DNA of 64,000 nucleotides from NCBI GenBank assembly GCA_963837465.1, contig CAWINB010000004.1, positions 793,078 through 857,077 on the forward strand. Reading direction: 5' to 3'. This document shows, in pieces, positions 738 to 51,153 of the stretch. The notes beneath the pieces are model-generated. The model saw nothing but the letters and a program-made list of their open reading frames with translations. It searched no databases and was not told the origin of the DNA. Source of the stretch: Candidatus Doudnabacteria bacterium. Its GTDB lineage: Bacteria; Patescibacteriota; Doudnabacteria; UBA920. Each line of letters opens with the position of its first letter. The stretch's first letter is position 1. Position numbers and translations under genes: made by a program.

Positions 738-758
738 CCGATAAATCGGCGCGCTACT
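738..758. promoter_or_regulatory. P4 motif GCCGATAAATCGGCGCGCTAC directly before the rmlA-like start codon
   Basis: Same 21-mer recurs at 24407 and, split by a 19-nt insert, at 51114; contains hairpin gccga-taaa-tcggc. Confidence 0.5.
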
Positions 759-1472
759 ATGAAAGGCATTATCCTCTCCGGCGGCAACGGCACCAGACTT
801 TATCCGCTTACTAAAATTACTTCAAAGCAACTTTTGCCGGTTTACAACAAGCCGATGATTTTTTATCCCCTGGAAACCCTGCTTAAAGGCGGCGTAAAAA
901 ATATTTTAATAATCGTCGCGCCGGATTATGCCGGGGACTATAAAAAATTACTGGGCGATGGCAGGGATTTTGGGGCGAGTTTCAGTTACAAAATCCAGGA
1001 ATCTCCCGCCGGCCTGGCCCAGGCTTTTATTTTGGGCGAAGATTTTATCTCAGGCGACAATGTCGCCATGATTTTAGGCGACAATATTTTTGAGGATGAT
1101 TTTTCCGCGGCCATTAAAAATTTTAAAAGCGGCGGCCAGATTTTTGCCAAAAAAGTCTCCGATCCGGAGCGTTTTGGCGTGGTCAAGTTTGACGCGGAAA
1201 TGCGCGCCGTTGGGATTGAGGAAAAGCCCAAAGTTTTTTTGTCGGACTTTGCCATAACTGGCCTGTATTTGTACGATACCCGCGCGGCCGAAGCGGCAAA
1301 AACCGCGCGGCCGTCGCTTCGCGGCGAGCTGGAAATTACCGATATCCATAACTGGTATTTAACCCGCGGCGAACTTAAAGTCGATATTGTCAAAGGCCAG
1401 TGGGAAGATGCCGGAACTTTTGAGTCCCTGTTTAAAGCTTCGGAATTAGCCAGAAGGAAAGCCAAAACTTGA
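759..1472 (+). CDS. rfbA: Glucose-1-phosphate thymidylyltransferase-family sugar nucleotidyltransferase (short RmlA-like)
   Basis: N-terminus GGNGTRLYPLTKITSKQLLPVYNKPMIFYPLETL is the canonical RmlA signature; 237 aa is shorter than typical RmlA. Confidence 0.75.
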   Translation: MKGIILSGGNGTRLYPLTKITSKQLLPVYNKPMIFYPLETLLKGGVKNILIIVAPDYAGDYKKLLGDGRDFGASFSYKIQESPAGLAQAFILGEDFISGDNVAMILGDNIFEDDFSAAIKNFKSGGQIFAKKVSDPERFGVVKFDAEMRAVGIEEKPKVFLSDFAITGLYLYDTRAAEAAKTARPSLRGELEITDIHNWYLTRGELKVDIVKGQWEDAGTFESLFKASELARRKAKT

Positions 1473-1473
1473 A

Positions 1474-1560
1474 TTTACGAAGTACGAACAGGTACGAACG
1501 TACGAATCGGGTTCCTTTCGTAAGTTCGTAAGCATTCGTACTTCGTAAAATCTTCGTAAA
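1474..1560. repeat. P1 palindromic intergenic element copy 1 (TTTACGAAGTACGAA...TTCGTACTTCGTAAA)
   Basis: Long imperfect hairpin; homologous copies at 31607, 32303 (degenerate) and 35022. Confidence 0.6.
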
Positions 1561-1565
1561 ATACC

Positions 1566-2522
1566 ATGACTCTAAAATCACAAAAAATAATCTGCTGCTT
1601 ACTTATTGCCCTGGTGGTGGTCGGGGGCTTTGAGGCGCTGATTTATATTTTAAATTTAAACCAGCCCGCTATCTATTTACAGACGGCTTTTTGGATTTTT
1701 GCCTATCTGGTTTTTGAAATAGTTTTTTTGCATGATCTGCACGTTAAAACTTCCGGCCATTTAAGCCGCGCGCGCTTAGAACACGCCCGGGTTAAGCAAA
1801 AACCGCTCCGCTTTATAAAAGTTTTGGGCTCGGCTTTTTACGGTCGTTTTCATCATTTGCGGAAATGGGGTTATATAAAACAATGGCTGGGCTTTTTGCT
1901 GCTGCCGAGTTTTATTTTTTGGTCCACTATTTCCCTGTTTTACGTTAACTTTGGCGATGTAAAAGTCCAGCAGCTTTTGGCCCTGTTTTCCAGCCTGGCT
2001 TTGATTCTGGACTATTGGTTTTTAAAGGAAGCGTTCCTCCGCGGCAGGGAAGTGGCGGACAATGATATTTTTGTGGTCCTGTCCATGATAAAAATTTACG
2101 CCGCGGCCATGCTCTACGCCGCGGCCTTATCCATTTTGCGCTACTATTGTTTAAACCCCTGGTATTTTACCGCCGAGGTTTTTTGTTTTACCTTCCTGCT
2201 TGTTTACCAGGCGCTTTACCACCATCGCCGCGCCGGCATAAAAAATATTTCCGTGGCCCTGGGCATTGCCGCCATAATGGCCGCGGCCGGGTTTATGGTC
2301 TACATTTGGTGGGGTTATAATTATTTCACGGCGGCCGTGTTTTTGGCCGCGCTTTATAATTTAATGTGGGGAGTTTTCCATTACCGCCTGGATAAGGCCC
2401 TGACCTGGCACGCTTTTTGGGAAATTTTACTGGTCAGCATTATTGTTTCCGGTATGGTTTTCAGCGTCACCAACTTTAAGGCCAGGATTTCGGACGAATG
2501 CCAGTATTATCTTGACTTTTGA
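1566..2522 (+). CDS. Polytopic integral membrane protein, function unknown
   Basis: 318-aa ORF with ~9 hydrophobic helices; no recognisable catalytic motif. Confidence 0.55.
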   Translation: MTLKSQKIICCLLIALVVVGGFEALIYILNLNQPAIYLQTAFWIFAYLVFEIVFLHDLHVKTSGHLSRARLEHARVKQKPLRFIKVLGSAFYGRFHHLRKWGYIKQWLGFLLLPSFIFWSTISLFYVNFGDVKVQQLLALFSSLALILDYWFLKEAFLRGREVADNDIFVVLSMIKIYAAAMLYAAALSILRYYCLNPWYFTAEVFCFTFLLVYQALYHHRRAGIKNISVALGIAAIMAAAGFMVYIWWGYNYFTAAVFLAALYNLMWGVFHYRLDKALTWHAFWEILLVSIIVSGMVFSVTNFKARISDECQYYLDF

Positions 2523-2550
2523 TTTTAGTACGGCCACGTTTTAGCCTAAA

Positions 2551-2585
2551 CAAGGGCGCCCCTTTGCTGCAAAGGGGCGCCCTTG
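2551..2585. terminator. GC-rich hairpin between convergent genes (bidirectional terminator)
   Basis: caagggcgcccctttgctgcaaaggggcgcccttg, perfect stem. Confidence 0.55.
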
Positions 2586-2611
2586 CGCGCGGCTGATGCC
2601 TAAAAACCTAT

Positions 2612-3688
2612 TTAAAACCAGTACAAAAACGCCACCACAATAATCGAAATTCCCAGCATCACCAGGTTGTTGGTTTTTTTATCCAGGGAGCCGAGTTTGT
2701 TTTCCAGAATTTTTTTGGCGTCAGAAAGCATTAGCGCCAAAAGCAGGGCGCCGCAAATTAAAATCAGGTAGCGGTTGGCTTGGTAATTGTCAAAAGCGCT
2801 TTCGTCCTCCGCGCCAACTACTGCCGAAGCCGAAGAAGTTTGGCTTGCCTGAGCCGGCGTTTGTTCGGCCGAGCCCGCGGCTTGGGTTGATAAAGCGAAA
2901 TTTTGCTCCTGGTTTGGGGCCGCCTGGCTTGATAATCCGCCGCGAATCGGAATGGGTAGGGCGGTGATAGTTTGGGATGCCTGGCCGATTGCCGGCTGCG
3001 GTATGCCTGAAGCTTGAACTTGGCTGGCTTGTAACGGTTGTGGCGAAGCAGCGTGAGCGGCTGCCGCGGCCGCGACATGGGACGGAAGTTTTTGGGCCGG
3101 TGGTTTAGACGCCGAGGCGACCAGAGCAGCCGGGACTTTAAGCTGAGCTATAGGCGCCAGCGTGCCAAAGGTATTGGTAATGGCGGAATAATATTGTCCC
3201 TGCGCCACATTGCCAAAGGTTAAGCCCATGCCCTGGTCCACAAAACCCGCGTTTAAAATATTGGCGCGATGTTCCGGGCTGTTCATCCAGGCATTTATTA
3301 AACTGTCGGTATCGTAAAACTCAATGGCCAGGTTTTCTCCCAATCGCAAATACGGAGTGTAGCCGTCGGCAACTATGGTATCCCAGATATAGTGCCCTCC
3401 CGGGTCCACATGCGAAAAATAATGGCGGGCTTGCATATCATCGCTCTTGGTCTGCGCGGCTTTAGTCAGTATAGCGTTGGTGTTTAAAGTGGTTAAATCT
3501 CTTAACTGTCTTTGGTTGTTAATGGCTTCCAGGATATTTAGGGTAGTTAAATCCGAAGCCTGAGTGGCATGATTTGGTAAAAATAAGGTGATTAAAACTT
3601 TAACAGCCAAAAAAACTACAACCAAAAGCCCAAAAAGTTTGGTTTTAAAAAAATGATAGTGGATCCTAAAACTGTAGTTTTCGTTCAT
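2612..3688 (-). CDS. Membrane-anchored CAP/SCP (YkwD-like) domain protein with Ala/Gln/Pro/Ser-rich linker
   Basis: HYFSHVDPGGH...NAWMNSPEHRANILN CAP-domain motifs; N-terminal TM helix; low-complexity AQASQ region. Confidence 0.7.
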   Translation of the reverse strand: MNENYSFRIHYHFFKTKLFGLLVVVFLAVKVLITLFLPNHATQASDLTTLNILEAINNQRQLRDLTTLNTNAILTKAAQTKSDDMQARHYFSHVDPGGHYIWDTIVADGYTPYLRLGENLAIEFYDTDSLINAWMNSPEHRANILNAGFVDQGMGLTFGNVAQGQYYSAITNTFGTLAPIAQLKVPAALVASASKPPAQKLPSHVAAAAAAHAASPQPLQASQVQASGIPQPAIGQASQTITALPIPIRGGLSSQAAPNQEQNFALSTQAAGSAEQTPAQASQTSSASAVVGAEDESAFDNYQANRYLILICGALLLALMLSDAKKILENKLGSLDKKTNNLVMLGISIIVVAFLYWF

Positions 3689-3731
3689 ATTTTGCCTATT
3701 AACAAGCCTATATTAACATCTTTTGTTTAAC

Positions 3732-9221: not shown

Positions 9222-9361
9222 GTATAACTTTTACTTGCAATACTTTTTTAAAGTGCTATGATATAAAAAATCGGTGGTTAGACAAGTTTTAATAAAACAA
9301 AAATAAACAGCCAGAGCGCTGTTTTATTTTTTATCTTTTTAGGACTAATACGCCCACAGCT

Positions 9362-9489
9362 GTCCCATCCCGGATTTTTTAGGGCTCTAAAAATATCCCG
9401 GATCCGGGACAAAGAGTATTCCGGGTTATGCCTTAATCTTGATCCCGGATATTTTCCAGATAAAGCCCTGAAAAATTCCGGGATGGGAC
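9362..9489. repeat. P2 composite hairpin element (CATCCCGGA...TCCGGGATG arms around an internal TCCCGGATCCGGGA palindrome)
   Basis: 25-nt arms gtcccatcccggattttttagggct / agccctgaaaaattccgggatgggac; related copies at 49212 and 54535. Confidence 0.5.
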
Positions 9490-9528
9490 ACTCCGCGGCA
9501 GCTATTTTCACAGTAACTTTCATCCGCT

Positions 9529-10710
9529 ATGGACAATTTTTATCTTTTGGAACTTATCAACGAAGCCAATACCCGCGGCGGGGGATTGGTTTTAAATTTG
9601 GAAACCCAGCCGGCGGCCGTGGTTTTAACAATTAATAAATACAATGAACTAATGCAAAATCAAGCAACATCAGCCAACGATATGCCGACGGATGAATTGT
9701 CCGACCCTGGACCACAAAAACCTTCCGGTCCAAAACAAAAAATTTTAGTCACCGGCGGTGCTGGCTATATTGGTTCGCATTGCGCCGGTGAACTTTTAAA
9801 GTCCGGATACGAGGTTGTGGTTTTGGACAATCTTTCATGCGGCAAAGAGCGTAATGTGCCCAGGGGCGCCAGGTTTGTGGAAGGGGACTTGGCGGATTTG
9901 GGATTGCTTAGGGATTTATTCGCGGGGGAAAATTTTTTCGCGGTTATGCATTTGGCCGCCAGCATAGAGGTGGAAGAATCGGTAAGTCAGCCGGAAAAGT
10001 ATTTTAAAAACAACGCTTTGAATACCGCGGGACTGCTTTCTGTGATGGCGGAGTACGGCGTCCGCAATATCATCTTTTCTTCCACTTGCGCGGTTTACGG
10101 CGAGCAGGTCAAACTGCCAATTAACGAGCAGTCTAAAGTCGGCCCCATAAATCCTTACGGCTGTTCCAAACTTTTGGCCGAAAGGATCATTAAATATTAC
10201 TGCCAATTTTTGGCATTAAATGCCGTAGTCTTTCGCTACTTCAACGCCTGCGGTTGCGGTTTTGACGGCGATGTGGAACCTACCCATTCCACGCATTTGT
10301 TGTCTCAGGTTTTAAAAGTCGCCGCCGGGGAAAAAGCTTCCATCAGCGTATTCGGCAACGACTACGGGACTTTTGACGGCACGTGTATTCGCGACTATGT
10401 CCACGTTTTGGATATTGCCGCGGCGCACGTGGCGGCGTTGCAAAAAATCGATCCGGAAAAATCGGCTTATGAAGTCTATAACATCGGCGCCGGCAAAGGC
10501 AGCAGCGTGCTGGAAATAATCAGTAAAACCGCGGAAGTCCTAAATAAAATTATCCCTATGGAAACCGCGCCCCGCCGCCCGGGCGACGCCCCCGAACTGG
10601 TGGCCGACAACACCAAACTGAAAAATCAACTAGGCTACCATCTAAAGTACAGCGACCTGGAAACCATCATCACCACCAGCTGGAAACAAACGCAGAATTA
10701 TAGTTCTTAA
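9529..10710 (+). CDS. galE: UDP-glucose 4-epimerase (GalE) with a ~60-aa N-terminal Phd/YefM-like extension
   Basis: KILVTGGAGYIGSH Rossmann motif, YxxxK, and the GalE C-terminal half; N-terminus LLELINEANTRGGGLVLNLETQPAAVVLTINKYNELMQ resembles Phd/YefM antitoxins. Confidence 0.8.
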   Translation: MDNFYLLELINEANTRGGGLVLNLETQPAAVVLTINKYNELMQNQATSANDMPTDELSDPGPQKPSGPKQKILVTGGAGYIGSHCAGELLKSGYEVVVLDNLSCGKERNVPRGARFVEGDLADLGLLRDLFAGENFFAVMHLAASIEVEESVSQPEKYFKNNALNTAGLLSVMAEYGVRNIIFSSTCAVYGEQVKLPINEQSKVGPINPYGCSKLLAERIIKYYCQFLALNAVVFRYFNACGCGFDGDVEPTHSTHLLSQVLKVAAGEKASISVFGNDYGTFDGTCIRDYVHVLDIAAAHVAALQKIDPEKSAYEVYNIGAGKGSSVLEIISKTAEVLNKIIPMETAPRRPGDAPELVADNTKLKNQLGYHLKYSDLETIITTSWKQTQNYSS

Positions 10711-23390: not shown

Positions 23391-24368
23391 ATGCCTTTAG
23401 TCAATAAGCAGATTGATTTATCAATCGTCATCCTCTCCTACAAATCCAAATCCCACCTGGAGGTTTTACTGCCGAGTGTTTTCGATAGTTTTGGGGTTGA
23501 TTTTTCAACTCCAAAACTATCGTCCGACGAAGCCTTGGCGAAGTCGGATGGGGATCGGGCGGCCAAGGCTCGCCCCTACACCGCCGAAATAATCATAGTA
23601 GACAACGACTCTCGCGACGGAACCGCGGAATGGATAAAAGCGGAATTCTGTGATTTTGACGGCCGTCAAAATCACAGAATGGTTTCCTTGATCGAGAATT
23701 CCAACAATGGTTTTTCCAAAGGAAATAATCTTGGAATAAAACAGGCCTCCGGCAAATATATTTTGCTGCTTAATCCCGACACCAGGCTTGAGCCCGGAAC
23801 TTTAAAAACTATGCTGGATTTTATGGACAGCCGGCCGGATGTCGGGATTTCCGGATGCAAACTTATTAAAGCCGACGGCAAGCTGGATGTAGCCTGCCGC
23901 AGAAGGTTTCCAAACCCATCCAATAGTTTTAAACGGCTGTTCCTGATGGACCGCATAGACTATAATTATTCCGATATCGATCAAGATAAGGAAATGGAAG
24001 TAGACAGCGTGGTCGGCGCGTTTATGCTTATCCGAAAATTAGCCCTGGATAAAACCGGCCTCTTGGACGAAATTTTTTTTATGTACGGTGAAGATTTGGA
24101 TTTGTGCTGGCGCTGCGAGGAAGCGGGGTTTAAAGTCTGGTATTATCCCAAAACTTTTATCCATCATTACAAAGGCGAGTCCAGCCGCAAAACGCCGTTT
24201 AAATCGTTAAAAGATTTCCATAACGCCATGTGGATTTTTTACAAAAAGCATTACGCTAAAAATTACTTCGTAATTTTTAATTGGCTGGTATGGTTGGGAA
24301 TTTATGCGCGGCTGGCCGTCTTGGTGATTATCAATAAATTCAAAGCCAATCCCAGTGTCAGCAAATAG
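23391..24368 (+). CDS. GT2 glycosyltransferase (rhamnosyltransferase-like) with in-frame palindromic inserts
   Basis: IVILSYKS...IIVDNDSRDGT...GFSKGNN GT2 motifs; extra segment DSFGVDFSTPKLSSDEALAKSDGDRAAKARP. Confidence 0.75.
   Translation: MPLVNKQIDLSIVILSYKSKSHLEVLLPSVFDSFGVDFSTPKLSSDEALAKSDGDRAAKARPYTAEIIIVDNDSRDGTAEWIKAEFCDFDGRQNHRMVSLIENSNNGFSKGNNLGIKQASGKYILLLNPDTRLEPGTLKTMLDFMDSRPDVGISGCKLIKADGKLDVACRRRFPNPSNSFKRLFLMDRIDYNYSDIDQDKEMEVDSVVGAFMLIRKLALDKTGLLDEIFFMYGEDLDLCWRCEEAGFKVWYYPKTFIHHYKGESSRKTPFKSLKDFHNAMWIFYKKHYAKNYFVIFNWLVWLGIYARLAVLVIINKFKANPSVSK
23645..23680. repeat. 36-bp perfect palindrome attctgtgattttgACGGCCGTcaaaatcacagaat, in frame within the GT2 CDS (P3 family)
   Basis: Direct reading; encodes EFCDFDGRQNHRM; related copies at 56846 and 60780 share the ACGGCCGT centre. 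Confidence 0.8.
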
Positions 24369-24406
24369 CGTGCCCGATTTTCTGGGCGTCCTTAAATCTC
24401 ATCAGC

Positions 24407-24427
24407 GCCGATAAATCGGCGCGCTAC
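24407..24427. promoter_or_regulatory. P4 motif GCCGATAAATCGGCGCGCTAC upstream of ctpA
   Basis: Identical 21-mer to 738..758. Confidence 0.5.
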
Positions 24428-24492
24428 GCAGGGTTTTGGTATTTTAAGCAAAAGCTGTTATAATTTAAAAACTTAAACTTTATATTTTATCT

Positions 24493-25770: not shown

Positions 25771-25846
25771 CAAATTTCAAACAAAATCCCAAAAGTCAAA
25801 ATTTAATTATTTGACATTTATTGGAAATTTGAAATTGGAAATTTGA
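25750..25846. repeat. CAAATTN heptamer run (x5) and its inverse complement (GGAAATTTGAAATTGGAAATTTGA) flanking a TTGACA box
   Basis: Direct reading at the ctpA-alaS junction. Confidence 0.6.
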
Positions 25847-27801
25847 TATTATTTAAAATGCCCAACATTACCGCTCAGGAACTCCGAACCAAATATCTTG
25901 AATTTTTTAAATCCAAAGGCCACGCTATCATCCCTTCGGCGTCTTTGGTGCCGGAAAACGACGCTACAACTTTGTTCACAGGCAGTGGTATGCAGCCAAT
26001 GGTACCTTATTTGCTGGGCGCGCGGCACGCCAAAGGCGCCAGGCTGGCCGACTCGCAAAAATGTTTCCGTTCCCAGGACATAGAAGAGGTCGGCGATAAC
26101 CGCCACACGACTTTTTTTGAGATGCTCGGCAACTGGTCGCTGGGCGATTATTTTAAACAGGAGCAGATTCCCTGGATGTTTGAGTTTCTAACCGGCGAGG
26201 TCGGCCTTGACCCAAAAAATTTGTACGTTACCGTTTTTCGCGGCAAGCAAGATATAGGCGTGGCGCGCGATGAGGAATCGGCAACTATTTGGGAAAGCCT
26301 GTTTATGGGAGCCGGTCTGGACGCAAAAATTGTGGATTTTCCGGAAAGAGACGGTTTGCAAAACGGCAGGATTTTTTATTATGACGAAAGCAAAAACTGG
26401 TGGTCGCGGGTCGGCGTAACGGCCAATATGCCGGTTGGGGAACCCGGCGGGCCTGACTCGGAAATGTTCTGGGATTACGGGGCGCATTTGCTAATCCATG
26501 AAAAATCTCCATACAAAGACCGGCCTTGCCATGTTAATTGCGATTGCGGGCGCTTTGTGGAAATCGGCAATAATGTGTTTATGCAGTACGTTAAAACCCA
26601 AACAGGGTTTGAAAAACTGCAGCAAAAAAATGTGGATTTTGGCGGGGGACTGGAAAGAATCCTGGCGGCGGCCAACGGCCAGCAGTCGGTTTTTGATACC
26701 GACATTTTTGACCCGATGTTCCAGGTCCTGGAGCTGGACCAGGAAATAATGACCAACGACGAAGTCCGTAAAGCGCGGATTATTTTGGACCATGTCCGCG
26801 CGGCCGTATTTATTGTCGACGACGGCATTGAGCCGTCCAACAAGGACCGTGGTTATGTGCTTCGCCGTTTGCTTAGGCGCGCCATGGTTATGGGGCGTTT
26901 GTTGAATTTAAAATTGCACTGGCTGGAGGCATTAGTCGGAAAAGTTATAGCCACCTACGCCCAAGCCTATCCCGATTTGGTGGAAAATTCGGAAAATATT
27001 TTTGAGGTTATAAAAAATGAGCAGGAGAAGTTTGAGGGAACGCTGGAAAAGGGGTTGAAGGAATTTGAGAAGCTAGTGAGGATGCCATCCGATGTAGGGG
27101 CCGGGCTTGCCCGCCCGCTTTCTGATGACGGGCGGCTAAAGCCAGCCCTTACAGAATCATTGATAAGCGGAAAAGATGCTTTTGACCTTTATCAAACTTA
27201 CGGTTTTCCCTGGGAACTTACCAAAGAACTGGCCGAACAATCCGGACAAAAAATAGACCACGCGGAATTTGAATCCGAATTTAAAAAACACCAGGAACTT
27301 TCCCGCACCGCGTCCGCCGGGCAGTTTAAAGGCGGTTTGCAGTCGCGCTCGGATAAAATCGTGCGGCTCCATACCGCGACTCACTTGATGAACGCGGCGC
27401 TCCGCCAGGTGCTTGGCGACAACGTTTGGCAAAAGGGGAGTAATATTACGGAAGAAAGAACCAGGTTTGATTTTACGCATAATAAAAAAATGACGCCGGA
27501 AGAAATCCTGTCCGTGGAAGCTTTGGTCAACGACTGGATAGCGCGCGACTTAAAGGTAAAAAAAGAAATTATGCCCTACGAACAGGCTCGCCAGCTTGAT
27601 GCCATTGGCGTGTTCGGTGAAAAATACCCGGACACCGTGTCTATATATACGGTTTACGATGAAAAATCAGGTGAAATAATAAGCCGCGAATTCTGCGGCG
27701 GCCCGCACGTGGAGCATACGGGAGTAATCGGCAAGTTTAAGATACAAAAAGAAGAAGCCTCATCTGCCGGAGTAAGAAGAATTAAAGCAGTTATTAGTTA
27801 G
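25843..27801 (+). CDS. alaS: Alanine--tRNA ligase, short form lacking the C-terminal C-Ala/DHHA1 domain; start may be Met at 25858
   Basis: Class II catalytic core (FTGSGMQP, RHTTFFEMLGNWS), editing-domain HxxxH and CGGPHV; ends after the editing domain at 652 aa. Confidence 0.85.
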   Translation: MILFKMPNITAQELRTKYLEFFKSKGHAIIPSASLVPENDATTLFTGSGMQPMVPYLLGARHAKGARLADSQKCFRSQDIEEVGDNRHTTFFEMLGNWSLGDYFKQEQIPWMFEFLTGEVGLDPKNLYVTVFRGKQDIGVARDEESATIWESLFMGAGLDAKIVDFPERDGLQNGRIFYYDESKNWWSRVGVTANMPVGEPGGPDSEMFWDYGAHLLIHEKSPYKDRPCHVNCDCGRFVEIGNNVFMQYVKTQTGFEKLQQKNVDFGGGLERILAAANGQQSVFDTDIFDPMFQVLELDQEIMTNDEVRKARIILDHVRAAVFIVDDGIEPSNKDRGYVLRRLLRRAMVMGRLLNLKLHWLEALVGKVIATYAQAYPDLVENSENIFEVIKNEQEKFEGTLEKGLKEFEKLVRMPSDVGAGLARPLSDDGRLKPALTESLISGKDAFDLYQTYGFPWELTKELAEQSGQKIDHAEFESEFKKHQELSRTASAGQFKGGLQSRSDKIVRLHTATHLMNAALRQVLGDNVWQKGSNITEERTRFDFTHNKKMTPEEILSVEALVNDWIARDLKVKKEIMPYEQARQLDAIGVFGEKYPDTVSIYTVYDEKSGEIISREFCGGPHVEHTGVIGKFKIQKEEASSAGVRRIKAVIS

Positions 27802-31349: not shown

Positions 31350-31604
31350 TTGATCTCCAGTAATCAAGACTCAGGGAAGTCACGACAAAATAAGAAAGAT
31401 GTCATTGAACTTGAGGGCAAAGTTATAGAAAATTTGCCTAATGCTATTTTTCGCGTCCAACTTGATTCGGGGCAGATAGTTTTGGGCCATTTGGCCGGAA
31501 AAATGCGGGTTAATATGATTCGCGTTATGCCCGGGGACAAAGTCCTGATTGAAATGACCCCGTATGATTTAACCAAAGGCAGGATAACCAGGAGAATGAG
31601 GTAG
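31350..31604 (+). CDS. infA: Translation initiation factor IF-1
   Basis: [38 protein letters not shown]...ITRRMR. Confidence 0.85.
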
Positions 31605-31606
31605 AG

Positions 31607-31687
31607 TTTACGAAGTACGAATATTTACGAACTTACAAAAAGGTTCGCTTATCGTTCGTACGTTCGTAAATATTCGTACTTCGTAAA
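31607..31687. repeat. P1 palindromic element copy 2 (perfect 26-bp stem)
   Basis: tttacgaagtacgaatatttacgaac...gttcgtaaatattcgtacttcgtaaa. Confidence 0.7.
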
Positions 31688-31693
31688 ATATAT

Positions 31694-31807
31694 ATGAAAG
31701 TCAAAGCTTCAGTAAAACCCAGGTGCAAGAAATGCAAAATCGTCAGACGCTTCGGACGTGTTTATGTTATTTGCGTAATCCCCAAGCATAAGCAACGCCA
31801 AGGATAG
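31694..31807 (+). CDS. rpmJ: Ribosomal protein L36 (not in ORF track, below 60 aa)
   Basis: [37 protein letters not shown]. Confidence 0.85.
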
Positions 31808-31810: not shown

Positions 31811-31911
31811 AATTGACAAGATTGACATAATTTAAAAAATTGACAAAATTAAAGCTGTGTCCTAATTATGTCAATTATGTCAATTTTATTTAATTTTGTT
31901 CAATAAACTTT
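31811..31911 (+). promoter_or_regulatory. Promoter/leader cassette A (TTGACA boxes, inverted TGTCAAT repeats, conserved leader ending at the rpsM ATG)
   Basis: ~95-nt near-identity to 62514..62606. Confidence 0.55.
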
Positions 31912-32301
31912 ATGGCCAGAATCGCCGGAATAAATTTACCCAACGAAAAACGCGTCGAAGCGGCATTGCCCTATATTTACGGCGTGGGTTTAAGTTTGTC
32001 AAAAAAAATTCTCGCTTCGGCCAGCGTGGATCCCGACAAGCGCAGCAAAGACTTAACGGAGCCCGAGTTAAACCGCATCCGCGAATATATTGAAAAGCAC
32101 TTTAAAGTGGAAGGCGAGCTCAGGCAGCAGGTTTTACTCAACATCAAGCGCCTTAAGGAAATTGGTTCCTACCGCGGCATCCGCCATATAAAAGGCTTGC
32201 CGGTCCGTGGCCAGCGCACCAAAACCAACTCCCGCACCCGCCGCGGCAACGTGCGCAAAACCGCGGGCAGCGGCCGCAAGAACGCTTCGGAAAAGACCTA
32301 G
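31912..32301 (+). CDS. rpsM: Ribosomal protein S13
   Basis: [10 protein letters not shown]...[17 protein letters not shown]. Confidence 0.95.
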
Positions 32302-32302: not shown

Positions 32303-32384
32303 TTCACGAAATACGAACAGGCGCGAACTCACAAGCTTCGCTTATCGATGATTCATATATTCGTAAATATTCGCGCTTCGCAAA
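32303..32384. repeat. P1 element, degenerate copy 3
   Basis: cacgaaatacgaacaggcgcgaac...ttcgtaaatattcgcgcttcg. Confidence 0.4.
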
Positions 32385-32404
32385 TTCTGTAAACTCTATT
32401 ATTT

Positions 32405-35021: not shown

Positions 35022-35102
35022 TTTACGAAGTACGAAATCAGTACGAACTTACGAATGGTTCGCATCCGATTCGTAAGTTCGTAAAAATTCGTACTTCGTA
35101 AA
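35022..35102. repeat. P1 palindromic element copy 4
   Basis: tttacgaagtacgaaatcagtacgaacttacgaa...ttcgtaagttcgtaaaaattcgtacttcgtaaa. Confidence 0.7.
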
Positions 35103-35108
35103 CTATAT

Positions 35109-35519
35109 ATGAAATCCCAAAGCATTACATTACCAAAGACAGTAAAACGCTCCTGGCACCAGGTGGATGTTTCAAAGCAATCTATGGGCCGCGTGGCCAC
35201 GGAAATTGCCAATCTGCTTCGCGGCAAGCACAAGCGCGACTTTACTCCTTATATGGATATGGGCGATTTTGTGGTTGCCGTTAACGCCGGATCGTTAAAA
35301 TTTACCGGCCGCAAAGTGGAACAGAAACAGTATTTCCGCCATTCCGGGTACTTGGGCGGACTTAAAAAGACTTCGCTGAAGAATTTACTGGAAAAAAAGC
35401 CGGAAGAAGTTTTAAAAAAAGCCGTCTTTAGCATGCTGGACGACGTTAAATTCCGCAAGTCAATGATGTCCAGACTGAAGATTGTAAAAGATGACAAACA
35501 TATTTACAAAATTGATTAA
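35109..35519 (+). CDS. rplM: Ribosomal protein L13
   Basis: WHQVDVSKQSMGRVATEIANLLRGKHK.. Confidence 0.95.
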   Translation: MKSQSITLPKTVKRSWHQVDVSKQSMGRVATEIANLLRGKHKRDFTPYMDMGDFVVAVNAGSLKFTGRKVEQKQYFRHSGYLGGLKKTSLKNLLEKKPEEVLKKAVFSMLDDVKFRKSMMSRLKIVKDDKHIYKID

Positions 35520-37673: not shown

Positions 37674-37680
37674 ATGCTCC

Positions 37681-38085
37681 GGGCAAACTCATAAGCCGAA
37701 TTCTGTTTCTCTCCGCCTTCGCGTAAAGCTATGCGGATCAGCGCCGTAAAATAAATTACAGTTGCTGAATAATCATCTATCTAGCCCCGCCATTGCTGGC
37801 GGGATCGAGCAGCCTACCTAATTTGGCCTTGCACTCAAGTAAGGATTTAGCCGTTTCACCCTTCGGCTTCGCTCAGAGCCTCGCGGCCCCGGGTTTATAT
37901 GAAGGTTGATCCAAATTTTGGATCCCCGCGCCTTTCGGCGGCAGGCGTCACTGTTCGCACCTCGCGGATTACTCCGGACGGGGATTACCCGCTACCAATT
38001 TTGATAACTCTTAAGAGGTTATCAAACAAGTGTTCGGACTTTCCTACCCTTAAAATAAATTAAGGATCGATTATTCGGTTTGCCC
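37681..38085 (-). ncRNA. rnpB: RNase P RNA (bacterial type A)
   Basis: Reverse complement contains GGAAAGTCCGAACAC, GGTAGGCTGCTCGA, CTAGATAGATGA and ACAGAATTCGGCTTAT; P1 pairing GGGCAAAC/GTTTGCCC; no ORFs on either strand. Confidence 0.85.
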
Positions 38086-38111
38086 AAAGCCCATAAATAT
38101 TAGCAAAAAAG

Positions 38112-39682: not shown

Positions 39683-39684
39683 GC

Positions 39685-40854
39685 ATGATGACAAATTTCC
39701 AATTTCCAGTTTCCAATTTCAAAATCGCTTTGGCCCACGATTCGTTTACCCAGGACGGGGGAGCGGAAAGAGTGATGGAGGGTTTGCATGAGCTGTTTCC
39801 CCAAGCCCCTGTTTTTACTTTGGTGTTTGACCCAAAATTCAGGGAAAAATACAAAGATTGGGACATCCGCACTTCCAAATTGCAGACTTTATACCTGTCT
39901 TTGGGCAAGCTCCAGTACCTTTTGCCGCTTATTCCGTACGGAGTGGATTCCCTGGATTTTTCCGGTTTTGACGTTATAATTTCTTCCAGCTCCGGGTTCA
40001 TTAAAAATTTACGCCGTCCGAAAAACGCCTTGCATATAAATTACTGCCATACCCCGGCCCGGTTTTTGTGGAGCGATGCCAATTACGTAAACGAAGAAGT
40101 CAATCCGGTCTTTAGACCCGCGGCAAAATTTATACTAAACCGGATAAAGCTTTGGGATTTAAAGGGGGCAAAGCGGGTGGATTATTTTATCGCTAATTCA
40201 CACGAAGTCCAAAACAGGATTTCGCGATATTATCAGCGTACTAGTACGCTGATACATCCGTTTGTCGATATGGATTTTTGGAAAAACGTTCAAACCAGGC
40301 AAAATTATTTTTTGCTCGCCGGCAGGCTTCAGGCGCATAAAAATAATGAACTGATTATCCAGATTTTTAATGAACTTGACCTGCCGCTGCGTGTGGCGGG
40401 TACGGGGCGGCAGGAAAATTATTTAAAATCCATCGCCAAACCGAATATTAAGTTCTTAGGGCGCGTCAGCGACGAACAACTGCGGCAGGAATACAGCGGA
40501 GCTCTCGGCTTTATTTACCCCCAACTGGAAGATTTCGGCCTAATGCCCCTGGAAGCCGCCGCCTGCGGCACGGCCACCCTGGCTTACGGCAAAGGCGGAG
40601 CTTTGGAAACGGTGACTTCTGGGGTTACAGGAGAGTTTTTTGGTCCCGACGCAGTTAGCCCATTTATGGGCTGTGGAACTGAACAAACAGCCGATAAATT
40701 GGCTAACTACAAGGACCAAATCAAACAGCTCATCCTAAACTGGCAACCGCAAAAATATAAACCCGACCAACTGCAATCCCAGGCCGAAAAATTCAGCAAG
40801 GAAAAATTTAAGGAAAATATTTTAGAATTTATTAATTCATTAAAAATGAAATGA
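39685..40854 (+). CDS. GT4 glycosyltransferase (carries several dispersed repeat motifs in frame)
   Basis: GT-B fold; EDFGLMPLEAAACG motif; heptamer run at its 5' end, the 22-bp palindrome at 40232 and the P4-variant at 40688. Confidence 0.8.
   Translation: MMTNFQFPVSNFKIALAHDSFTQDGGAERVMEGLHELFPQAPVFTLVFDPKFREKYKDWDIRTSKLQTLYLSLGKLQYLLPLIPYGVDSLDFSGFDVIISSSSGFIKNLRRPKNALHINYCHTPARFLWSDANYVNEEVNPVFRPAAKFILNRIKLWDLKGAKRVDYFIANSHEVQNRISRYYQRTSTLIHPFVDMDFWKNVQTRQNYFLLAGRLQAHKNNELIIQIFNELDLPLRVAGTGRQENYLKSIAKPNIKFLGRVSDEQLRQEYSGALGFIYPQLEDFGLMPLEAAACGTATLAYGKGGALETVTSGVTGEFFGPDAVSPFMGCGTEQTADKLANYKDQIKQLILNWQPQKYKPDQLQSQAEKFSKEKFKENILEFINSLKMK
40232..40253. repeat. 22-bp perfect palindrome ATCAGCGTACTAGTACGCTGAT inside the GT4 CDS (P5 family)
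   Basis: Direct reading; encodes YQRTSTLIH; core shared with 49711..49728 and 49604..49629. Confidence 0.8.
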
Positions 40855-44958: not shown

Positions 44959-45906
44959 ATGCTTAACTCGGCAAAACCCAAAGTCGGACTGGCTCTAAGC
45001 GGCAGCGGCGACCGCACGACTTTTTATATCGGCTTTCTGGAAAGCCTGAGCCGGCAAAATGTCCCCATAGATTATATTTCCGCCTGCTCCGGAGGGTCGC
45101 TGGTGGCCGCGGCTTACGCCTGCGGCGCCTTGGAAGAGTTTAAAAAAGAAGCCCTGTCCCTGAACGGCGAAGGCCTTAAACATTACATCGCCAAAAGCAG
45201 GGGCCGCGGAGGTTTTTATTCACTGGATGTGATGGAGGAAAAATTGCGCGGATTTACAAAAGGCAAAACTTTTGAGGAAGTCAGGCCGCTGATGTCGTTT
45301 GTCACAGTGGACATAGAAACAGGCGAGCAAATTAACCTTTGCATAGGCGATATCGCGCGCGCCGCCAGGGTTTCCTGCACCTTGCCCGGGGTTTTTGAGC
45401 CGGTGAAATGGGGCAACCGGACTCTGGTGGACGGCGGCCTGTTAAGCCAAATCCCGCTGGATTCCTTAAAACAGTTTCCGGTTGACGTAACAGTTGGGGT
45501 TAATATGCGCGGCACCAAACATATTTTTACCCAGGGGCAAATCAGCTTAAAAAAACTCCTCAACCTTTTGGGCAAGCTGCTGTTTGTCAGCGAGCTCGGC
45601 AGTTTGGTCAGAGGTTTTTGGGATGAAGACGAAGACGGGGATATTGATTTTGAGCGCAACCCCAGCACGTTTACGGTTTTAAGCAAGAGCCTGAATCTGG
45701 CCATTGCCGCCGAGAAAACGGGCTCGGAGCCGGATATATCCTGCGACCTGATGATAGTTCCCTCCATGCCGCCGGTTAAACGCGACATTACCGAGCAATT
45801 TACATTTTATTACGAAATGGGAAAAAAGTGCGCCGAAGAGTTTGGGCCAAAAATTTTACAACTTGTGGAACAGAAGCAAAAAATTATGGACGCGGTAAAA
45901 TCATGA
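44959..45906 (+). CDS. Patatin-like phospholipase
   Basis: GLALSGSGDR, CSGGS (GxSxG) and DGG motifs. Confidence 0.75.
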   Translation: MLNSAKPKVGLALSGSGDRTTFYIGFLESLSRQNVPIDYISACSGGSLVAAAYACGALEEFKKEALSLNGEGLKHYIAKSRGRGGFYSLDVMEEKLRGFTKGKTFEEVRPLMSFVTVDIETGEQINLCIGDIARAARVSCTLPGVFEPVKWGNRTLVDGGLLSQIPLDSLKQFPVDVTVGVNMRGTKHIFTQGQISLKKLLNLLGKLLFVSELGSLVRGFWDEDEDGDIDFERNPSTFTVLSKSLNLAIAAEKTGSEPDISCDLMIVPSMPPVKRDITEQFTFYYEMGKKCAEEFGPKILQLVEQKQKIMDAVKS

Positions 45907-47408
45907 ACCTGGATGATATAAAAAAAATATATTTTGTGGGTATTGGCGGCATAGCCATGTCCGCGGCCGCTGGTATTGCCGGACAGCGGGGGTTTGAGGT
46001 AACCGGCAGCGACGCGGCAGGAATTTATCCGCCGGCCAAAGATGCGCTGGATGCTTTGGATATCCCTTACTTTACCGGCTACAGCCCGGAGCACCCAAAG
46101 CGGGCGGGCGCCGATTTGTTTATTTTATCCGCGGGGGAAGGGCCGGAAAATCCCGAAGTCGGATATATTTTGGAAAACGGCCTTCCGCGCTCGGGCTTTC
46201 CGGAACTGCTTTATGAGCTGGCCAAAGACCGTCTGCGTCTGGTCGTGGCCGGCACGCACGGTAAATCCACCACAACCGGCCTTTTGGGGCACCTGTTAAA
46301 AAATCTGGACGACAGTTCTTTTTTGGCCGGCGGGGTCCTGCAAAACTACGACAGTAATTTTTATCTGGGCGACGGCAATTATTTTGTGTTTGAGGGCGAT
46401 GAGTACAAATCGGAGTTTGACGACCCGACGCCAAAGTTTCAATACTACAGGGCCGATATTTCGGTTTTGACCAACCTGGAATACGATCATCCCGATATGT
46501 TTGAAAATTTCGAGGTCCTGCGGCAGGAATTCCGTTTGCTGGTTGAAAAAATGCCGGAAGACGGGCTGGTTGTTTACAACGCGGATGACGCGGCCCTGAC
46601 CCAGCTTGTCCATGAATCCAATGTCAGCAGCGTCAGTTTTGGCATAGACAATCCCGCGGATTTTAAGGCGGAAGACATAAATTACTCCTCTGATTTTACG
46701 ACAATTGAAATAATAAACAAATTTTCCAAAGCCATTTCCAGTAAACTGCTCGGGCAAACCGAACAATACAAAATCCAGCTGCCGGGGAAAATCAATGTTT
46801 ATAATTCTTTGGCGGCCATTGCCACGCTAAGGTCTTTGGGTTTTGCGCGGGAGCAAATTGCCCTGGACCTTTTAACTTATAGGGGAATAAAAAGGCGTTT
46901 TGAAGTCGTGGGGGTAAAAAATGGCATTACCATCATCGACGATTACGCGCACCATCCCACCGCGGTAAAAGAAACCCTGGAAGCGGCCCGTCTCCGGTAT
47001 TTCCCTCAAACATCAGGCATCAAACATCAGACATCAAAATTATGGGCTATTTTTGAACCCCATACCTTTAGCCGCACCAAAGCCACATTGGATGACCTTG
47101 CGAAAAGTTTTGACGCGGCCGATGAGGTTTTGATATCGGAAATTTACCCGGCCAGGGAAAAAGCATCAGCCGGTACTGTAACATCTTCGCAAGTTGTCAA
47201 TGCTGTAACGCGCTCTGTAGGGGCTGCGCTCGCGCGCCCGCTCCCCGATGACGGGCGGCCAAGGCCAGCCCCCGCAATACGTTTGGTTTCGGATAAAACC
47301 CAAGCCCTAACCATCCTGAAATCCGAAGCCAAACCCGGCGACGTAATCATCATAATGGCCGTAGGCAGCTTTAACCGACTGGCTTATGAGTTGAAAGAAA
47401 TATTATAA
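45903..47408 (+). CDS. murC: UDP-N-acetylmuramate--L-alanine ligase; start at the ATGA overlap with the previous gene
   Basis: KIYFVGIGGIAMS...GTHGKSTTTGLL Mur-ligase motifs; in-frame tandem repeat insert at 47007-47039. Confidence 0.8.
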   Translation: MNLDDIKKIYFVGIGGIAMSAAAGIAGQRGFEVTGSDAAGIYPPAKDALDALDIPYFTGYSPEHPKRAGADLFILSAGEGPENPEVGYILENGLPRSGFPELLYELAKDRLRLVVAGTHGKSTTTGLLGHLLKNLDDSSFLAGGVLQNYDSNFYLGDGNYFVFEGDEYKSEFDDPTPKFQYYRADISVLTNLEYDHPDMFENFEVLRQEFRLLVEKMPEDGLVVYNADDAALTQLVHESNVSSVSFGIDNPADFKAEDINYSSDFTTIEIINKFSKAISSKLLGQTEQYKIQLPGKINVYNSLAAIATLRSLGFAREQIALDLLTYRGIKRRFEVVGVKNGITIIDDYAHHPTAVKETLEAARLRYFPQTSGIKHQTSKLWAIFEPHTFSRTKATLDDLAKSFDAADEVLISEIYPAREKASAGTVTSSQVVNAVTRSVGAALARPLPDDGRPRPAPAIRLVSDKTQALTILKSEAKPGDVIIIMAVGSFNRLAYELKEIL

Positions 47409-47410
47409 AG

Positions 47411-48717: not shown

Positions 48718-48803
48718 GGAAGTATGCTATAATGATTTTGTAAAAAATTAATTTTTAACAGCAAGCTGAACAGCAAAATGCGCGTTATTCGCCCGTTACG
48801 ATT

Positions 48804-49133: not shown

Positions 49134-49138
49134 AAAAT

Positions 49139-49166
49139 CCCCCGGCCAAACCGGGGTATTTTTTTG
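49139..49166 (+). terminator. Rho-independent terminator
   Basis: atcccccggccaaaccggggtattttttt. Confidence 0.7.
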
Positions 49167-49211
49167 CCATCTCAGAGATGCCAATATCAATCGAGCTGTG
49201 TTTTTGGTGTG

Positions 49212-49265
49212 TCATCCCGGAATTTTTCGCGACAAGCCTATTGAAAGGAAAAATGTCCGGGATCC
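49212..49265. repeat. P2 hairpin element copy (CATCCCGGAATTTTT...AAAATGTCCGGGATCC)
   Basis: Matches 54535..54581 and the arms of 9362..9489. Confidence 0.55.
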
Positions 49266-49308
49266 AGAATCAAGCATGACCTTGATAAATCAGGACGGAA
49301 ACAACCCA

Positions 49309-49584
49309 TTACTTCTCCAGCATCTGCCTGAAACCGCCCTTTTTATTCATCAGTTCCCGCGAGCCGCGTGTTACAGTAGCCACGCTAACCTTAAGATTTT
49401 TGGCGATGTCCCTTTGGGGAACCTTTTGTTCCAGCTGTTTTACAATCTGCCAGCGCACAGCCAGGTCTTTATACTCGGCGGGGGACAGTAAATCGTACAA
49501 AAGCTCGTGCAACAAGGCTTTGCTTTTAGCCGCCTTAAACAACAAATTTTCCATCTCTACCCCGAATTTATAATCGTATTTCAT
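49309..49584 (-). CDS. TrpR-like YerC/YecD-family DNA-binding protein
   Basis: LLSPAEYKDLAVRWQIVKQL...RDIAKNLKVSVATVTRGSREL. Confidence 0.6.
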   Translation of the reverse strand: MKYDYKFGVEMENLLFKAAKSKALLHELLYDLLSPAEYKDLAVRWQIVKQLEQKVPQRDIAKNLKVSVATVTRGSRELMNKKGGFRQMLEK

Positions 49585-49603
49585 GGTATTTTCCTGTTCG
49601 TAA

Positions 49604-49629
49604 ATGTTACTGTACTAGTACAGTAACAT
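49604..49629. promoter_or_regulatory. 26-bp perfect palindrome ATGTTACTGTACTAGTACAGTAACAT, 20 nt upstream of the TrpR-like gene (candidate operator)
   Basis: Direct reading. Confidence 0.5.
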
Positions 49630-49710
49630 GGCCGCCGGAGACGGTCAACAGGCTTTTTATATGTGGATAACTTTGGCTTAGGTTCGATATTTTTTCAAAT
49701 TCGCGTGTTC

Positions 49711-49728
49711 TAGCGTACTAGTACGCTA
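49711..49728. promoter_or_regulatory. 18-bp perfect palindrome TAGCGTACTAGTACGCTA (same GTACTAGTAC core)
   Basis: Direct reading; immediately followed by TTGACG...TAGTAT promoter-like boxes. Confidence 0.45.
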
Positions 49729-50225
49729 TTGACGGCGGATTTTCCTTGATGTAGTATTAGCTTATGATTTTTCAAAAATCCCGACAATCTCAACTATCCT
49801 GGCGGCAGGTTTTGTAACCGCAAAGCCTGGGTTTTGATACACCTTCAAACACCTCCCGGCCTTTTGCGGAAGGTGTTTTTTATTTGTTCTGATGATTGTT
49901 CAGTATAAAAAAGTGTGGCCGCATTTTTTATCCATACGATCACCAGCACAAATCCAAACCAGGATAACAAGGGTGCTGTCTTGCCTGGAAATAAAAGAGG
50001 ATGGAATGCAGTTTTATTTTAGGTGTCGTTTTAGCCACAGGTCTGTCTCGAGAGGGGCATTGGCCAAAATTCTGCACTCTTCCCTGAAGAGTGTCACTTT
50101 GGAGATATTCCAAAGTGGCACGAGTAGCGAAAGAGCTACTCAAATTCAACGTTATGAAATGGAGGAGTTTCTTTATTGTTATTATCGCGCCAATGAGCGC
50201 GATCGGGATGTTAAGAATATACCTT

Positions 50226-50270
50226 CCGCCGTCCTGCGTAATTAGCAGGCTCCGGCGGTTCCATTTTTTT
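50226..50270 (+). terminator. Hairpin plus T-run terminator inside the gene-poor region
   Basis: ccgccgtcctgcgtaattagcaggctccggcgg ttccattttttt. Confidence 0.5.
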
Positions 50271-50561
50271 ATTTTAACGTTTGGATTTTAAAACTTGACA
50301 GTATTAATAGGTTTGCTAAGCTCTATTTAGATGAATAAATTGACTCAAAATTTCTGGTTTTATTTTTACTTTACCCTGGGCGTTGAGGCCAGAAATTTTG
50401 AGTTGATTAGTCCACAGATGAGCAGATAGCGCAAATTGCACAAATGCAAACATCAACTCCAAACTTCCGACCTCAACAGGGGTCGATTTTTTATTGGCCC
50501 GATAAAGATCGGATAGTAATAAAATTCAAAAATCCCGCTTTGCGGGTGGAGGATGGAATAA

Positions 50562-50762
50562 ATGGAAAGAAAAGAAATTATTGCGGCTACCAAAGACGCC
50601 GTTCCCGGGTCTCCGCAAGCAAAGACGTACGAGCTTGCGAGGGAAAACACGTCGGGGTTTGACGTTTGCGGCGCCTGCCACACATCTTTTCCGGAAAACT
50701 CCGGTGAAAGCTGTTGCGGCGTAATTACGGTAACCATTTTTTCTTTGGCATCAAATTGGTAG
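50562..50762 (+). CDS. Small Cys-containing ORF (66 aa) with a GGAGG Shine-Dalgarno
   Basis: GGAGG 9 nt upstream of the ATG; CGACH...CCG; no homology recognised. Confidence 0.3.
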   Translation: MERKEIIAATKDAVPGSPQAKTYELARENTSGFDVCGACHTSFPENSGESCCGVITVTIFSLASNW

Positions 50763-50858
50763 GTAGCCCTTATAGGGCAAGGAAAAAATTCTCGCAAGAG
50801 AGTATTTTCCTGGCCCCAAGAGGGGCGGATCAAAAAAGACAAAAGAAAGGAGGTGGGT

Positions 50859-50912
50859 ATGGGCAATCTGTCCCGAGTTCAATTAACCCGAGCTGAAAGC
50901 GGGTCGCGATAA
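50859..50912 (+). CDS. 17-aa ORF (MGNLSRVQLTRAESGSR) behind a perfect 10-nt anti-16S SD (AAAGGAGGTG), followed by a terminator
   Basis: Direct reading; this strength of SD is otherwise absent from the window. Confidence 0.25.
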   Translation: MGNLSRVQLTRAESGSR

Positions 50913-50923
50913 TTCTTTCAGCA

Positions 50924-50958
50924 CGGCCGGTCCTATTTTTTGGACCGGCATTTTTTTA
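50924..50958 (+). terminator. Rho-independent terminator
   Basis: ggccggtcctattttttggaccggcattttttt. Confidence 0.6.
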
Positions 50959-51113
50959 TACAATAGTTCTGAGTTTTGGCATTTTAACAGCCGATAAATC
51001 GGCTAACTACATCGGGCTAATCCACTTTACAAACCCTTCTTTCGGACAGCTTTTATTTATGAGTGGATTCTGTTATAATATCAACATGTAATTTTAATTA
51101 GATTATCCAGATT

Positions 51114-51153
51114 GCCGATAAATACCGTAGGACGACACAAGTCGGCGCGCTAC
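51114..51153. promoter_or_regulatory. P4 motif split by a 19-nt insert (GCCGATAAAT[accgtaggacgacacaagt]CGGCGCGCTAC) in the secA leader
   Basis: Alignment to 738..758 and 24407..24427; preceded by TGTTATAAT extended -10 at 51071-51079. Confidence 0.5.

Follow-up and report, generated by a model that had tools for sequence, protein, structure and literature searches.

Repetitive extragenic palindromic (REP) sequences headed by GTAG, bacterial interspersed mosaic elements (BIMEs) and REP doublets forming hairpins (REPINs), together with the REP-associated tyrosine transposase RayT (TnpA-REP), are known from E. coli, Pseudomonas and Stenotrophomonas (PMC2817692, PMC3116915, PMC3733652, PMC3479197). 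Di Nocera (2013) described GTAG-tagged REPs in eight phyla, with stems of 5-13 bp and loops of 2-3 nt, compensatory subfamilies, head-outward dimers and TAG stop donation; RAYT genes are flanked by GTAG repeats, REPs may lie in frame within genes, and different REPs occur at the same site of orthologous genes (PMC3733652). A literature search found no paper connecting REP, RAYT or REPIN with Patescibacteria or the candidate phyla radiation (CPR). The DNA analysed here, a 64-kb stretch of contig CAWINB010000004.1 of a Candidatus Doudnabacteria bacterium (hereafter the window), carries a short repeat, the P4 motif, which an earlier note had described as recurring at gene 5' ends. The P4 motif is very probably a family of GTAG-type REPs, new and very short and of a known kind of element. 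Its anatomy, its inverted doublets, the covariation of its stems, its bracketing of RayT-like genes in relatives, its presence or absence at orthologous junctions and its in-frame insertion all fit GTAG REPs already described in other phyla.

Read on the strand opposite to that used in the earlier note, the unit has the form GTAG-NNN-GCCSATTTATSGGC, in which the GTAG head is unpaired and a 3-nt linker joins it to a 6-2-6 palindrome; its core, GTAG-NNN-GCCGATTTATCGGC, places a short hairpin after a conserved tetranucleotide that stays unpaired. The GTAG start of every unit had escaped the note. Each unit is 21 nt long and contains a 14-nt near-palindrome (GCCSAT-TT-ATSGGC) that gives a 5-6 bp hairpin as a single strand, and the small hairpin proposed for the core is upheld both by the predicted fold energies of the units as DNA (-5.1 to -5.8 kcal/mol) and by stem covariation. 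The 21-mer GCCGATAAATCGGCGCGCTAC is exact at 737-757 and 24407-24427 (0.00 expected in shuffles), and the repeat common to the two sites is exactly this 21-mer, with nothing beyond; the second of these positions had been given correctly, the first one base off, as 738-758. The 24-mer CAGCCGATAAATYGGCTAACTACA, noted as a second subfamily, recurs at 40688-40711 and 50988-51011 as claimed (0.00 expected), and a degenerate pattern search of the window returned six matches against 0.14 expected. A covariance model (CM), R1, built from arms of related genomes and applied to the window, found six significant arms (starting at 737, 24407, 40651, 40690, 50990 and 60877; E 2.9e-6 to 8.5e-3), with the next match at E 2.6; decayed copies also occur in the window, a split copy ahead of secA among them. 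The GTAG head is retained in five of the six significant arms and reads GCAG in the sixth, and it is invariant across 32 distinct arms. A generic window scan for GTAG followed by any perfect hairpin gave 10 hits against 1-18 in shuffles and, being no better than shuffles, was replaced by the pattern and CM searches.

Covariation was assessed in partner arms picked by position only, not by pairing. Double changes occur in five of six stem pairs, and compensatory cells number 20 against 8.0 +/- 2.1 in shuffles, a count that 0 of 500 shuffles reach. The stem variants include GCCCAT/ATGGGC, GCCGAT/ATCGGC, GCTCAT/ATGAGC and GCCTGAT/ATCAGGC. Since the stems covary, it is structure, and not sequence, that is conserved.

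Related loci bear L-numbers below. A degenerate pattern scan over one genome per GTDB species listed more than 105 matches, mostly from Ca. Doudnabacteria, 'Patescibacteria group' and metagenome-assembled genomes (MAGs) labelled Saccharibacteria, so that the comparison with relatives proposed earlier recovers the same motif in Doudnabacteria and other Patescibacteria MAGs; the remaining matches, in conserved coding sequences of Bacteroidota and Mesorhizobium, were regarded as chance or protein-driven and set aside. The window has six arms; an unbiased locus of 21 kb from a relative has four, and the loci selected by motif, 529 kb in all, have 164. Viral contigs gave a single motif match, and the motif is therefore not phage-borne. 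In 33 of 110 copies from related genomes a perfect GTAG-hairpin partner lies 4-31 nt upstream, producing the inverted doublet GTAG-NNN-GCCCATTTATGGGC-(4-21 nt)-GCCGATAAATCGGC-NNN-CTAC, which is head-outward and REPIN-like; the linkers are complementary between the arms, and the arms differ by a C/G swap in the stem. Beyond this set, GTAG-hairpin arms, often with the GCCGATTTATCGGC core, are seen at L001, L004, L005, L008, L023, L025, L028, L040, L064, L068 and L096, with up to 10 arms per 8 kb at L064. The taxon labels of these MAGs, whose bin assignments are provisional, are Proteobacteria (54-58% GC), Syntrophaceae, Ignavibacteria, Deltaproteobacteria, Zixiibacteriota, Ktedonobacteraceae and Levyibacteriota (CPR; L028). 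GTAG arms with TTTA-type centres likewise occur in MAGs assigned, again provisionally, to several other phyla.

Two doublets are present in the window, and both fold into long hairpins. Their inverted partner arms (24365-24387 and 40651-40671), which turn two already noted copies into doublets, were absent from the earlier note, as was the copy at 60877-60897. In the first doublet, the left arm scores only 8.4 bits with the CM, so its call rests on position and on a match to L101, where the variant arm GTAGTTAGCCCGATTTTCTGGGC is likewise paired with a standard arm; the predicted fold pairs it with the right arm at 24407 across a 19-nt spacer (24362-24430 folded as DNA, -15.1 kcal/mol, z -2.7). 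The GT2 gene at 23391-24368 ends in a TAG stop codon (24366-24368) that lies in the head of this left arm, and the right arm ends 65 nt upstream of the ctpA ATG (24493), in line with the placement of this copy upstream of ctpA. The second doublet (40651-40710; 40648-40714 folded as DNA, -16.9 kcal/mol, z -5.9) lies within the GT4 open reading frame (ORF) at 39685-40854, where its right arm had rightly been described as in frame; the stem of that arm holds one G.T pair. The doublet encodes AVSPFMGCGTEQTADKLANY, residues 323-342 (20 aa) of the GT4 protein, and the Pfam Glycos_transf_1 match on this protein ends at residue 322, precisely at the insert. PDB alignments of the protein end at the insertion, and an orthologue alignment was used instead: of the 120 closest orthologues, about three quarters have FFD-SYD-KEKI at this point and no insert.

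The named relatives of the GT4 protein are labelled 'Candidatus Doudnabacteria' or 'Patescibacteria group', and synteny between the window and Doudnabacteria contigs, at ~68-73% nucleotide identity, extends over genes for ribosomal proteins, SIMPL, Bac_transf, GT4, murG, patatin, murC and murB. At the same GT4 site, other lineages (L113, L114, L117 and L118) carry different GTAG...CTAC doublets, with compensatory changes in the stems. That of L114 reads GTAGCGGCGGCCACTGGCCGCC...GGAGGCCGGTGGCCTCCGCTAC, and the inserts of L117 and L118 have arms with 7-bp stems (GCCCCAT/ATGGGGC, GCCTGAT/ATCAGGC), the hairpins being kept by compensatory changes. A full doublet occupies the Bac_transf-GT4 junction in L113, where the window genes abut, and the murB-hpf junction holds a singlet in L113 and none in the window. 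The rmlA junction of L077 was considered as a further presence/absence site and discarded as uninformative; it is not orthologous, because the upstream gene differs.

Insertion into coding sequence is frequent in the family. Intragenic copies make up 21 of 103 by a strict criterion (long ORFs) and 30 of 103 by crude gene calling, that is, 20-29%, and they lie on both strands within ORFs. Most coding copies are read in the same frame, which yields ...TADKSANY from singlets and V-[AV]-SPFMG...TADKSANY from doublets. A doublet is found in frame in gatB of two species (L076 ~790-860, - strand; L077 1336-1395), and its arms differ by one linker change between the species, amid flanking coding sequence that is ~80% identical and a spacer of differing length, a pattern suggesting that the arms are constrained at the nucleotide level or homogenised. 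A tentative extension, which we consider rather unlikely, is that REP doublets are long-term residents of fixed sites, including sites in essential genes (gatB, glpX-like and GT4), and that their arms are continually re-homogenised to the current subfamily, either by RayT-dependent replacement or by gene conversion. Such turnover would explain the near-identical arms between species amid diverged surrounding codons, the different GTAG...CTAC families at orthologous sites across lineages, and the way in which V-A/V-S-P-F-M-G ... T-A-D-K-S-A-N-Y changes by correlated substitutions that preserve the hairpin and not the protein. If true, it would represent site-specific turnover of a selfish element in coding sequence and provide a handle on the co-evolution of REPs and their transposase.

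Related loci also contain the candidate mobilising enzyme. The first probe was an E. coli YafM sequence, and it picked two ORFs; both were then verified independently by Pfam, NCBIfam and PDB. In all, five Y1 (HUH) transposase genes of 137-152 aa (L059, L045, L107, L109 and L111) are bracketed by the motif, each with a GTAG-hairpin within ~20 nt 5' of its ATG and a hairpin-CTAC at or just past its stop codon. Scores with Pfam Y1_Tnp (PF01797) are 29.5-33.8 bits (cut-off 23), and those with the NCBIfam model 'REP-associated tyrosine transposase' (NF047646) are 63.2, 67.3 and 77.4 bits, against 18-26 bits for IS200. In the PDB their sole relative is 4er8, E. coli TnpA-REP in complex with a REP, and the alignment covers the HUH motif (HVH/HMH) as well as the C-terminal Tyr, which is conserved (Y-I-x-x-N-P). 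Searching databases with the protein of L059 gave 322 relatives, typically of 137 aa, several of which JGI labels 'REP element-mobilizing transposase RayT'. The homologues found here are a divergent branch, and NCBI accordingly labels it only 'transposase'. The gene order purC-RayT-purB is shared by two Doudnabacteria genomes, and this syntenic site is consistent with vertical inheritance of RayT; other lineages have the gene at a patatin-murC or a tatD-leuS junction. The suggestion that P4 might be a very short mobile motif is borne out by this bracketing and by the presence and absence of copies at orthologous junctions.

By the mechanism established for REPs, the most likely one here, a small HUH/Y1 RayT/TnpA-REP, encoded once elsewhere in the genome and bracketed by two arms, would bind the folded hairpin and GTAG head on single-stranded DNA and then cut and rejoin it; the single-strand arm sequences GTAGCGTGCCCATTTATGGGC and GTAGCGCGCCGATTTATCGGC are candidate substrates. 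RayT presumably catalyses movement of the units, and the genome from which the window derives presumably still encodes such an enzyme. Its action would disperse and maintain the non-autonomous units, and the window copies would be passengers that land where they are tolerated, in short intergenic spacers and in-frame protein loops. A donated stop codon (GT2), 20 added residues (GT4) and a contribution to the 5' leader (rmlA, secA) would then be incidental effects, and any effect of the copies on expression is likely to be of this kind.

Several observations weigh against assignment to the REPs. The stem length is at the short extreme for these elements, and exact 21-nt singlets, one of them in a 27-nt spacer, are unlike the prediction of the REPIN-doublet movement model. 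No RayT-like gene was detected within the window (best tblastn E 1.8), whose own patatin-murC junction is without one, and the RayT homologues of related genomes fall below the NCBIfam equivalog cut-off of 80 bits. The density, ~0.1 arm/kb, is estimated from two stretches, the window and an unbiased locus of 21 kb, and mobility is read from sequence comparison. In addition, two window arms (24407 and 60877) lie 8 and 7 nt, respectively, upstream of the promoter-like -35 of promoter-like sites at 24436-24464 and 60905-60932, which would fit a regulatory site. Promoter coupling, suggested by these two copies, was ruled out by the family as a whole: over 184 arms, the positions of -10-like hexamers form no peak. 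Among about 100 copies in related genomes, those in unidirectional gene contexts have the orientation described in the earlier note in 18 cases and the opposite one in 34. Orientation and promoter distance being unconstrained across the family, the motif as a family is not a 5'-end regulatory signal; that property, suggested for it in the earlier note, also disagrees with the intragenic share. Expression effects of the copies are therefore treated as incidental and copy-specific.

It is improbable that the copies are functional RNA elements, namely mRNA-leader or intercistronic hairpins that tune the stability or translation of rmlA, ctpA, secA and secD. Although the four singlets of the window are all in sense orientation to co-directional genes, the related genomes show no such bias, and copies within ORFs occur on both strands; since nearly all window genes are on the + strand, any spacer between two of them counts as 3' to one gene and 5' to the next. 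The copies at 737 and 51114 abut start codons without a Shine-Dalgarno sequence, and G.T (G-U) pairs are found in stems such as that of 40690-40710, but the RNA folds of the singlets are weak (z -0.9 with context). The 50990 copy, with a terminator-like site on one side and a -10-like sequence on the other, is thus probably little transcribed. An Rfam 15 search of the window at the gathering score matched only RNase P (37676-38086) and nothing on the motif, and intrinsic-terminator calls fall on no copy, the sole call (50926-50949) being a separate hairpin upstream of 50990. REPs elsewhere are known RNA stabilisers (PMC3733652), and a role of this type would at best be a secondary, copy-specific effect of a REP.

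Still less probable is an operator role for the 6-2-6 palindrome GCCGAT-AA-ATCGGC, bound by a dimeric transcription factor that governs a cell-envelope/secretion regulon. The core is indeed palindromic, but the conserved GTAG/CTAC tail is asymmetric and the covarying stems keep structure and not sequence. The neighbouring genes are functionally related, and the two arms next to a promoter-like -35 are followed by a TG-extended -10; nevertheless, the spacing to -10-like hexamers is flat over the family, a fifth or more of the copies lie within coding sequence, some of them in frame, orthologous junctions differ in whether they hold a copy, and copies bracket a transposase gene. That the units are instead miniature IS200/IS605 derivatives carrying subterminal end hairpins is scarcely credible, for although Pfam places the associated protein in Y1_Tnp ('Transposase IS200 like') and the ends of such elements likewise carry hairpins recognised on single-stranded DNA, the protein fits the REP-associated tyrosine transposase model (63-77 bits) far better than the IS200 model, the repeated thing is a 21-nt unit without a gene, the gene flanks are the same arm type inverted with GTAG heads and not distinct left and right ends, and the gene sits in the syntenic housekeeping context purC-RayT-purB in two genomes.

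With a REP family thus the favoured reading, the remaining window copies can be described individually (Table 1). The copy at 737-757 takes up most of the 27-nt rmlD-rmlA spacer, beginning 5 nt past the rmlD stop and ending 1 nt from the rmlA ATG (759), which it had been said to abut; its DNA hairpin has a predicted energy of -5.1 kcal/mol, and the flanking genes were identified by Pfam. The singlet at 50990-51010 is flanked by the terminator-like hairpin (50926-50949 plus a T run) and by the TG-extended -10-like TGTTATAAT (51071-51079) upstream of secA, which was read directly from the sequence, the promoter scan giving no call there. The copy in the secA leader reads GCCGATAAAT + 19 nt + CGGCGCGCTAC, interrupted exactly as had been reported, and ends 3 nt from the secA ATG (51157). 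It is unique among ~180 arms from loci of related genomes, where a search for long-loop variants resembling it found none, and it folds no more stably than shuffled sequences; what remains there is probably a REP that has decayed or undergone rearrangement. The related weak sequence reported near 50502 is confirmed as ccgataaagatcgg and may be a decayed copy, and the weak GTAG-hairpin at 50759-50778 is possibly a decayed arm. The 900-nt gap before secA also contains small ORFs with a strong Shine-Dalgarno sequence, one encoding a Cys-rich 66-aa peptide (50562-50762) and one of 17 aa starting at 50841, and the hairpin at 50926-50949 lies downstream of both. The degenerate singlet at 60877-60897 lies between a pgeF-like gene and secD and has no stable fold. 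The pgeF-like (Cu-oxidase_4) gene itself consists of two overlapping ORFs (60029-60463 and 60409-60780) one for each half of the Pfam model, the cause being a frameshift (pseudogene) or else an error of sequencing.

Table 1. Positions of the putative REP arms in the window and of GT4 orthologues and RayT-like genes at related loci
Feature	Sequence	Position	Strand	Basis
REP singlet, GTAGCGCGCCGATTTATCGGC on - strand	window	737..757	-	exact match; CM R1 35.4 bits, E 2.9e-6
Left doublet arm, variant ATAG-CGT-GCCCGATTTTCTGGGC	window	24365..24387	+	position and L101 match; CM 8.4 bits
Right arm of 24365 doublet	window	24407..24427	-	exact 21-mer; CM 35.4 bits
Left arm of in-frame GT4 doublet, GCAGTTAGCCCATTTATGGGC, head GTAG decayed to GCAG	window	40651..40671	+	1 mismatch; CM 26.9 bits, E 2.9e-4
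Right arm of in-frame GT4 doublet, GTAGTTAGCCAATTTATCGGC on - strand	window	40690..40710	-	CM 26.6 bits
Weak motif-like ccgataaagatcgg	window	50499..50512	.	sequence; not significant alone, absent from CM matches at E <= 10
Weak GTAG-hairpin GTAGGTAGCCCTTATAGGGC	window	50759..50778	+	CM 8.8 bits, E 5.5; not significant
REP singlet, TAA-linker subfamily	window	50990..51010	-	CM 35.1 bits
Atypical split copy, secA 5' leader	window	51114..51153	-	sequence; CM 8.9 bits for 3' half
Degenerate REP singlet, GTAGCTAACCGATTTATGGGC on - strand, stem broken	window	60877..60897	-	CM 20.7 bits, E 0.0085
GT4 orthologue	L113	10001-11197		
GT4 orthologue	L114	10001-11281		
GT4 orthologue	L117	301-1626		
GT4 orthologue	L118	301-1428		
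RayT gene	L059	6244-6657		
RayT gene	L107	2001-2414		
RayT gene	L109	2001-2414		
RayT gene	L111	2001-2420		

Other repeats are also present in the window. A second GTAG-headed repeat, GC-rich and 84% identical between its two copies (27094-27148 and 47217-47271), lies in frame in two genes unrelated to each other, the ORF at 25843-27801 and a murC-like ORF (45828-47408), encoding the peptides VGAGLARPLSDDGRLKPAL and VGAALARPLPDDGRPRPAP; it is probably another intragenic REP-like family. An intergenic TACGAA/TTCGTA inverted-repeat family, with arms of up to 38 nt that are 83-92% complementary, occurs at 1471-1556, 31602-31694, 32352-32391 and 35054-35114, as well as in L114 (~9890-9960) and L039. 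Two 49-nt leaders (31866-31914 and 62561-62609; TTATGTCAATT...TTGTTCAATAAACTTTATG) are 92% identical and reach the start codons of the ORF at 31912-32301 (129 aa) and of secF. A 53-nt inverted pair (9438-9490 and 54531-54583), 89% complementary and 45 kb apart, belongs to a CCCGGA-containing family with related copies at 9360-9415 and 49207-49275.

The REP assignment explains a conspicuous repeat without invoking a new regulator and extends the REP/RayT system to Patescibacteria. It also calls for caution in annotating ultra-small genomes, in which such a repeat produces what look like leader motifs, provides stop codons and lengthens conserved enzymes by 7-20 residues. In addition, the short units, the coding copies and the near-identical arms across species form a natural data set on REP maintenance and on the single-stranded DNA hairpins that a minimal 137-aa RayT can recognise.

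Among described systems, insertion sequences of the IS200/IS605 group (IS608, ISDra2) share with the present family a Y1 HUH transposase and small hairpins with an adjacent tetranucleotide on single-stranded DNA, whereas here the repeated unit lacks a gene, both gene flanks are the same arm type and the protein groups with RayT. The Rickettsia palindromic elements (RPEs) and the intragenic REPs of Opitutus terrae resemble it as palindromic repeats in frame in conserved genes, with inserts of 7-30 residues that leave the ORF intact and, for Rickettsia, a reduced genome. According to the literature, RPE-1 is longer (~100-150 bp), and RPE-4 and RPE-6 are CGTC-type REPs for which no dedicated transposase is identified (PMC3733652). 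Unlike RPEs, the units described here have GTAG heads and an identifiable RayT. The closest likeness is to the GTAG REPs: an unpaired GTAG head beside a short hairpin, single copies together with head-outward inverted doublets, compensatory stem subfamilies, a Y1/HUH gene bracketed by inverted units, a head TAG serving as a stop codon and occasional in-frame intragenic copies. The present family differs from known GTAG REPs in its 21-nt unit, whose stem has 5-6 bp and whose centre is A/T-rich, in a RayT of only 137 aa that scores just below the NCBIfam equivalog cut-off, in the large intragenic share of the sampled copies and in the exact singlets found in tiny spacers. Its host is a reduced Patescibacteria (CPR) genome, outside the published REP surveys examined, and what is new is this host, the small unit with its 137-aa RayT and the high intragenic share.

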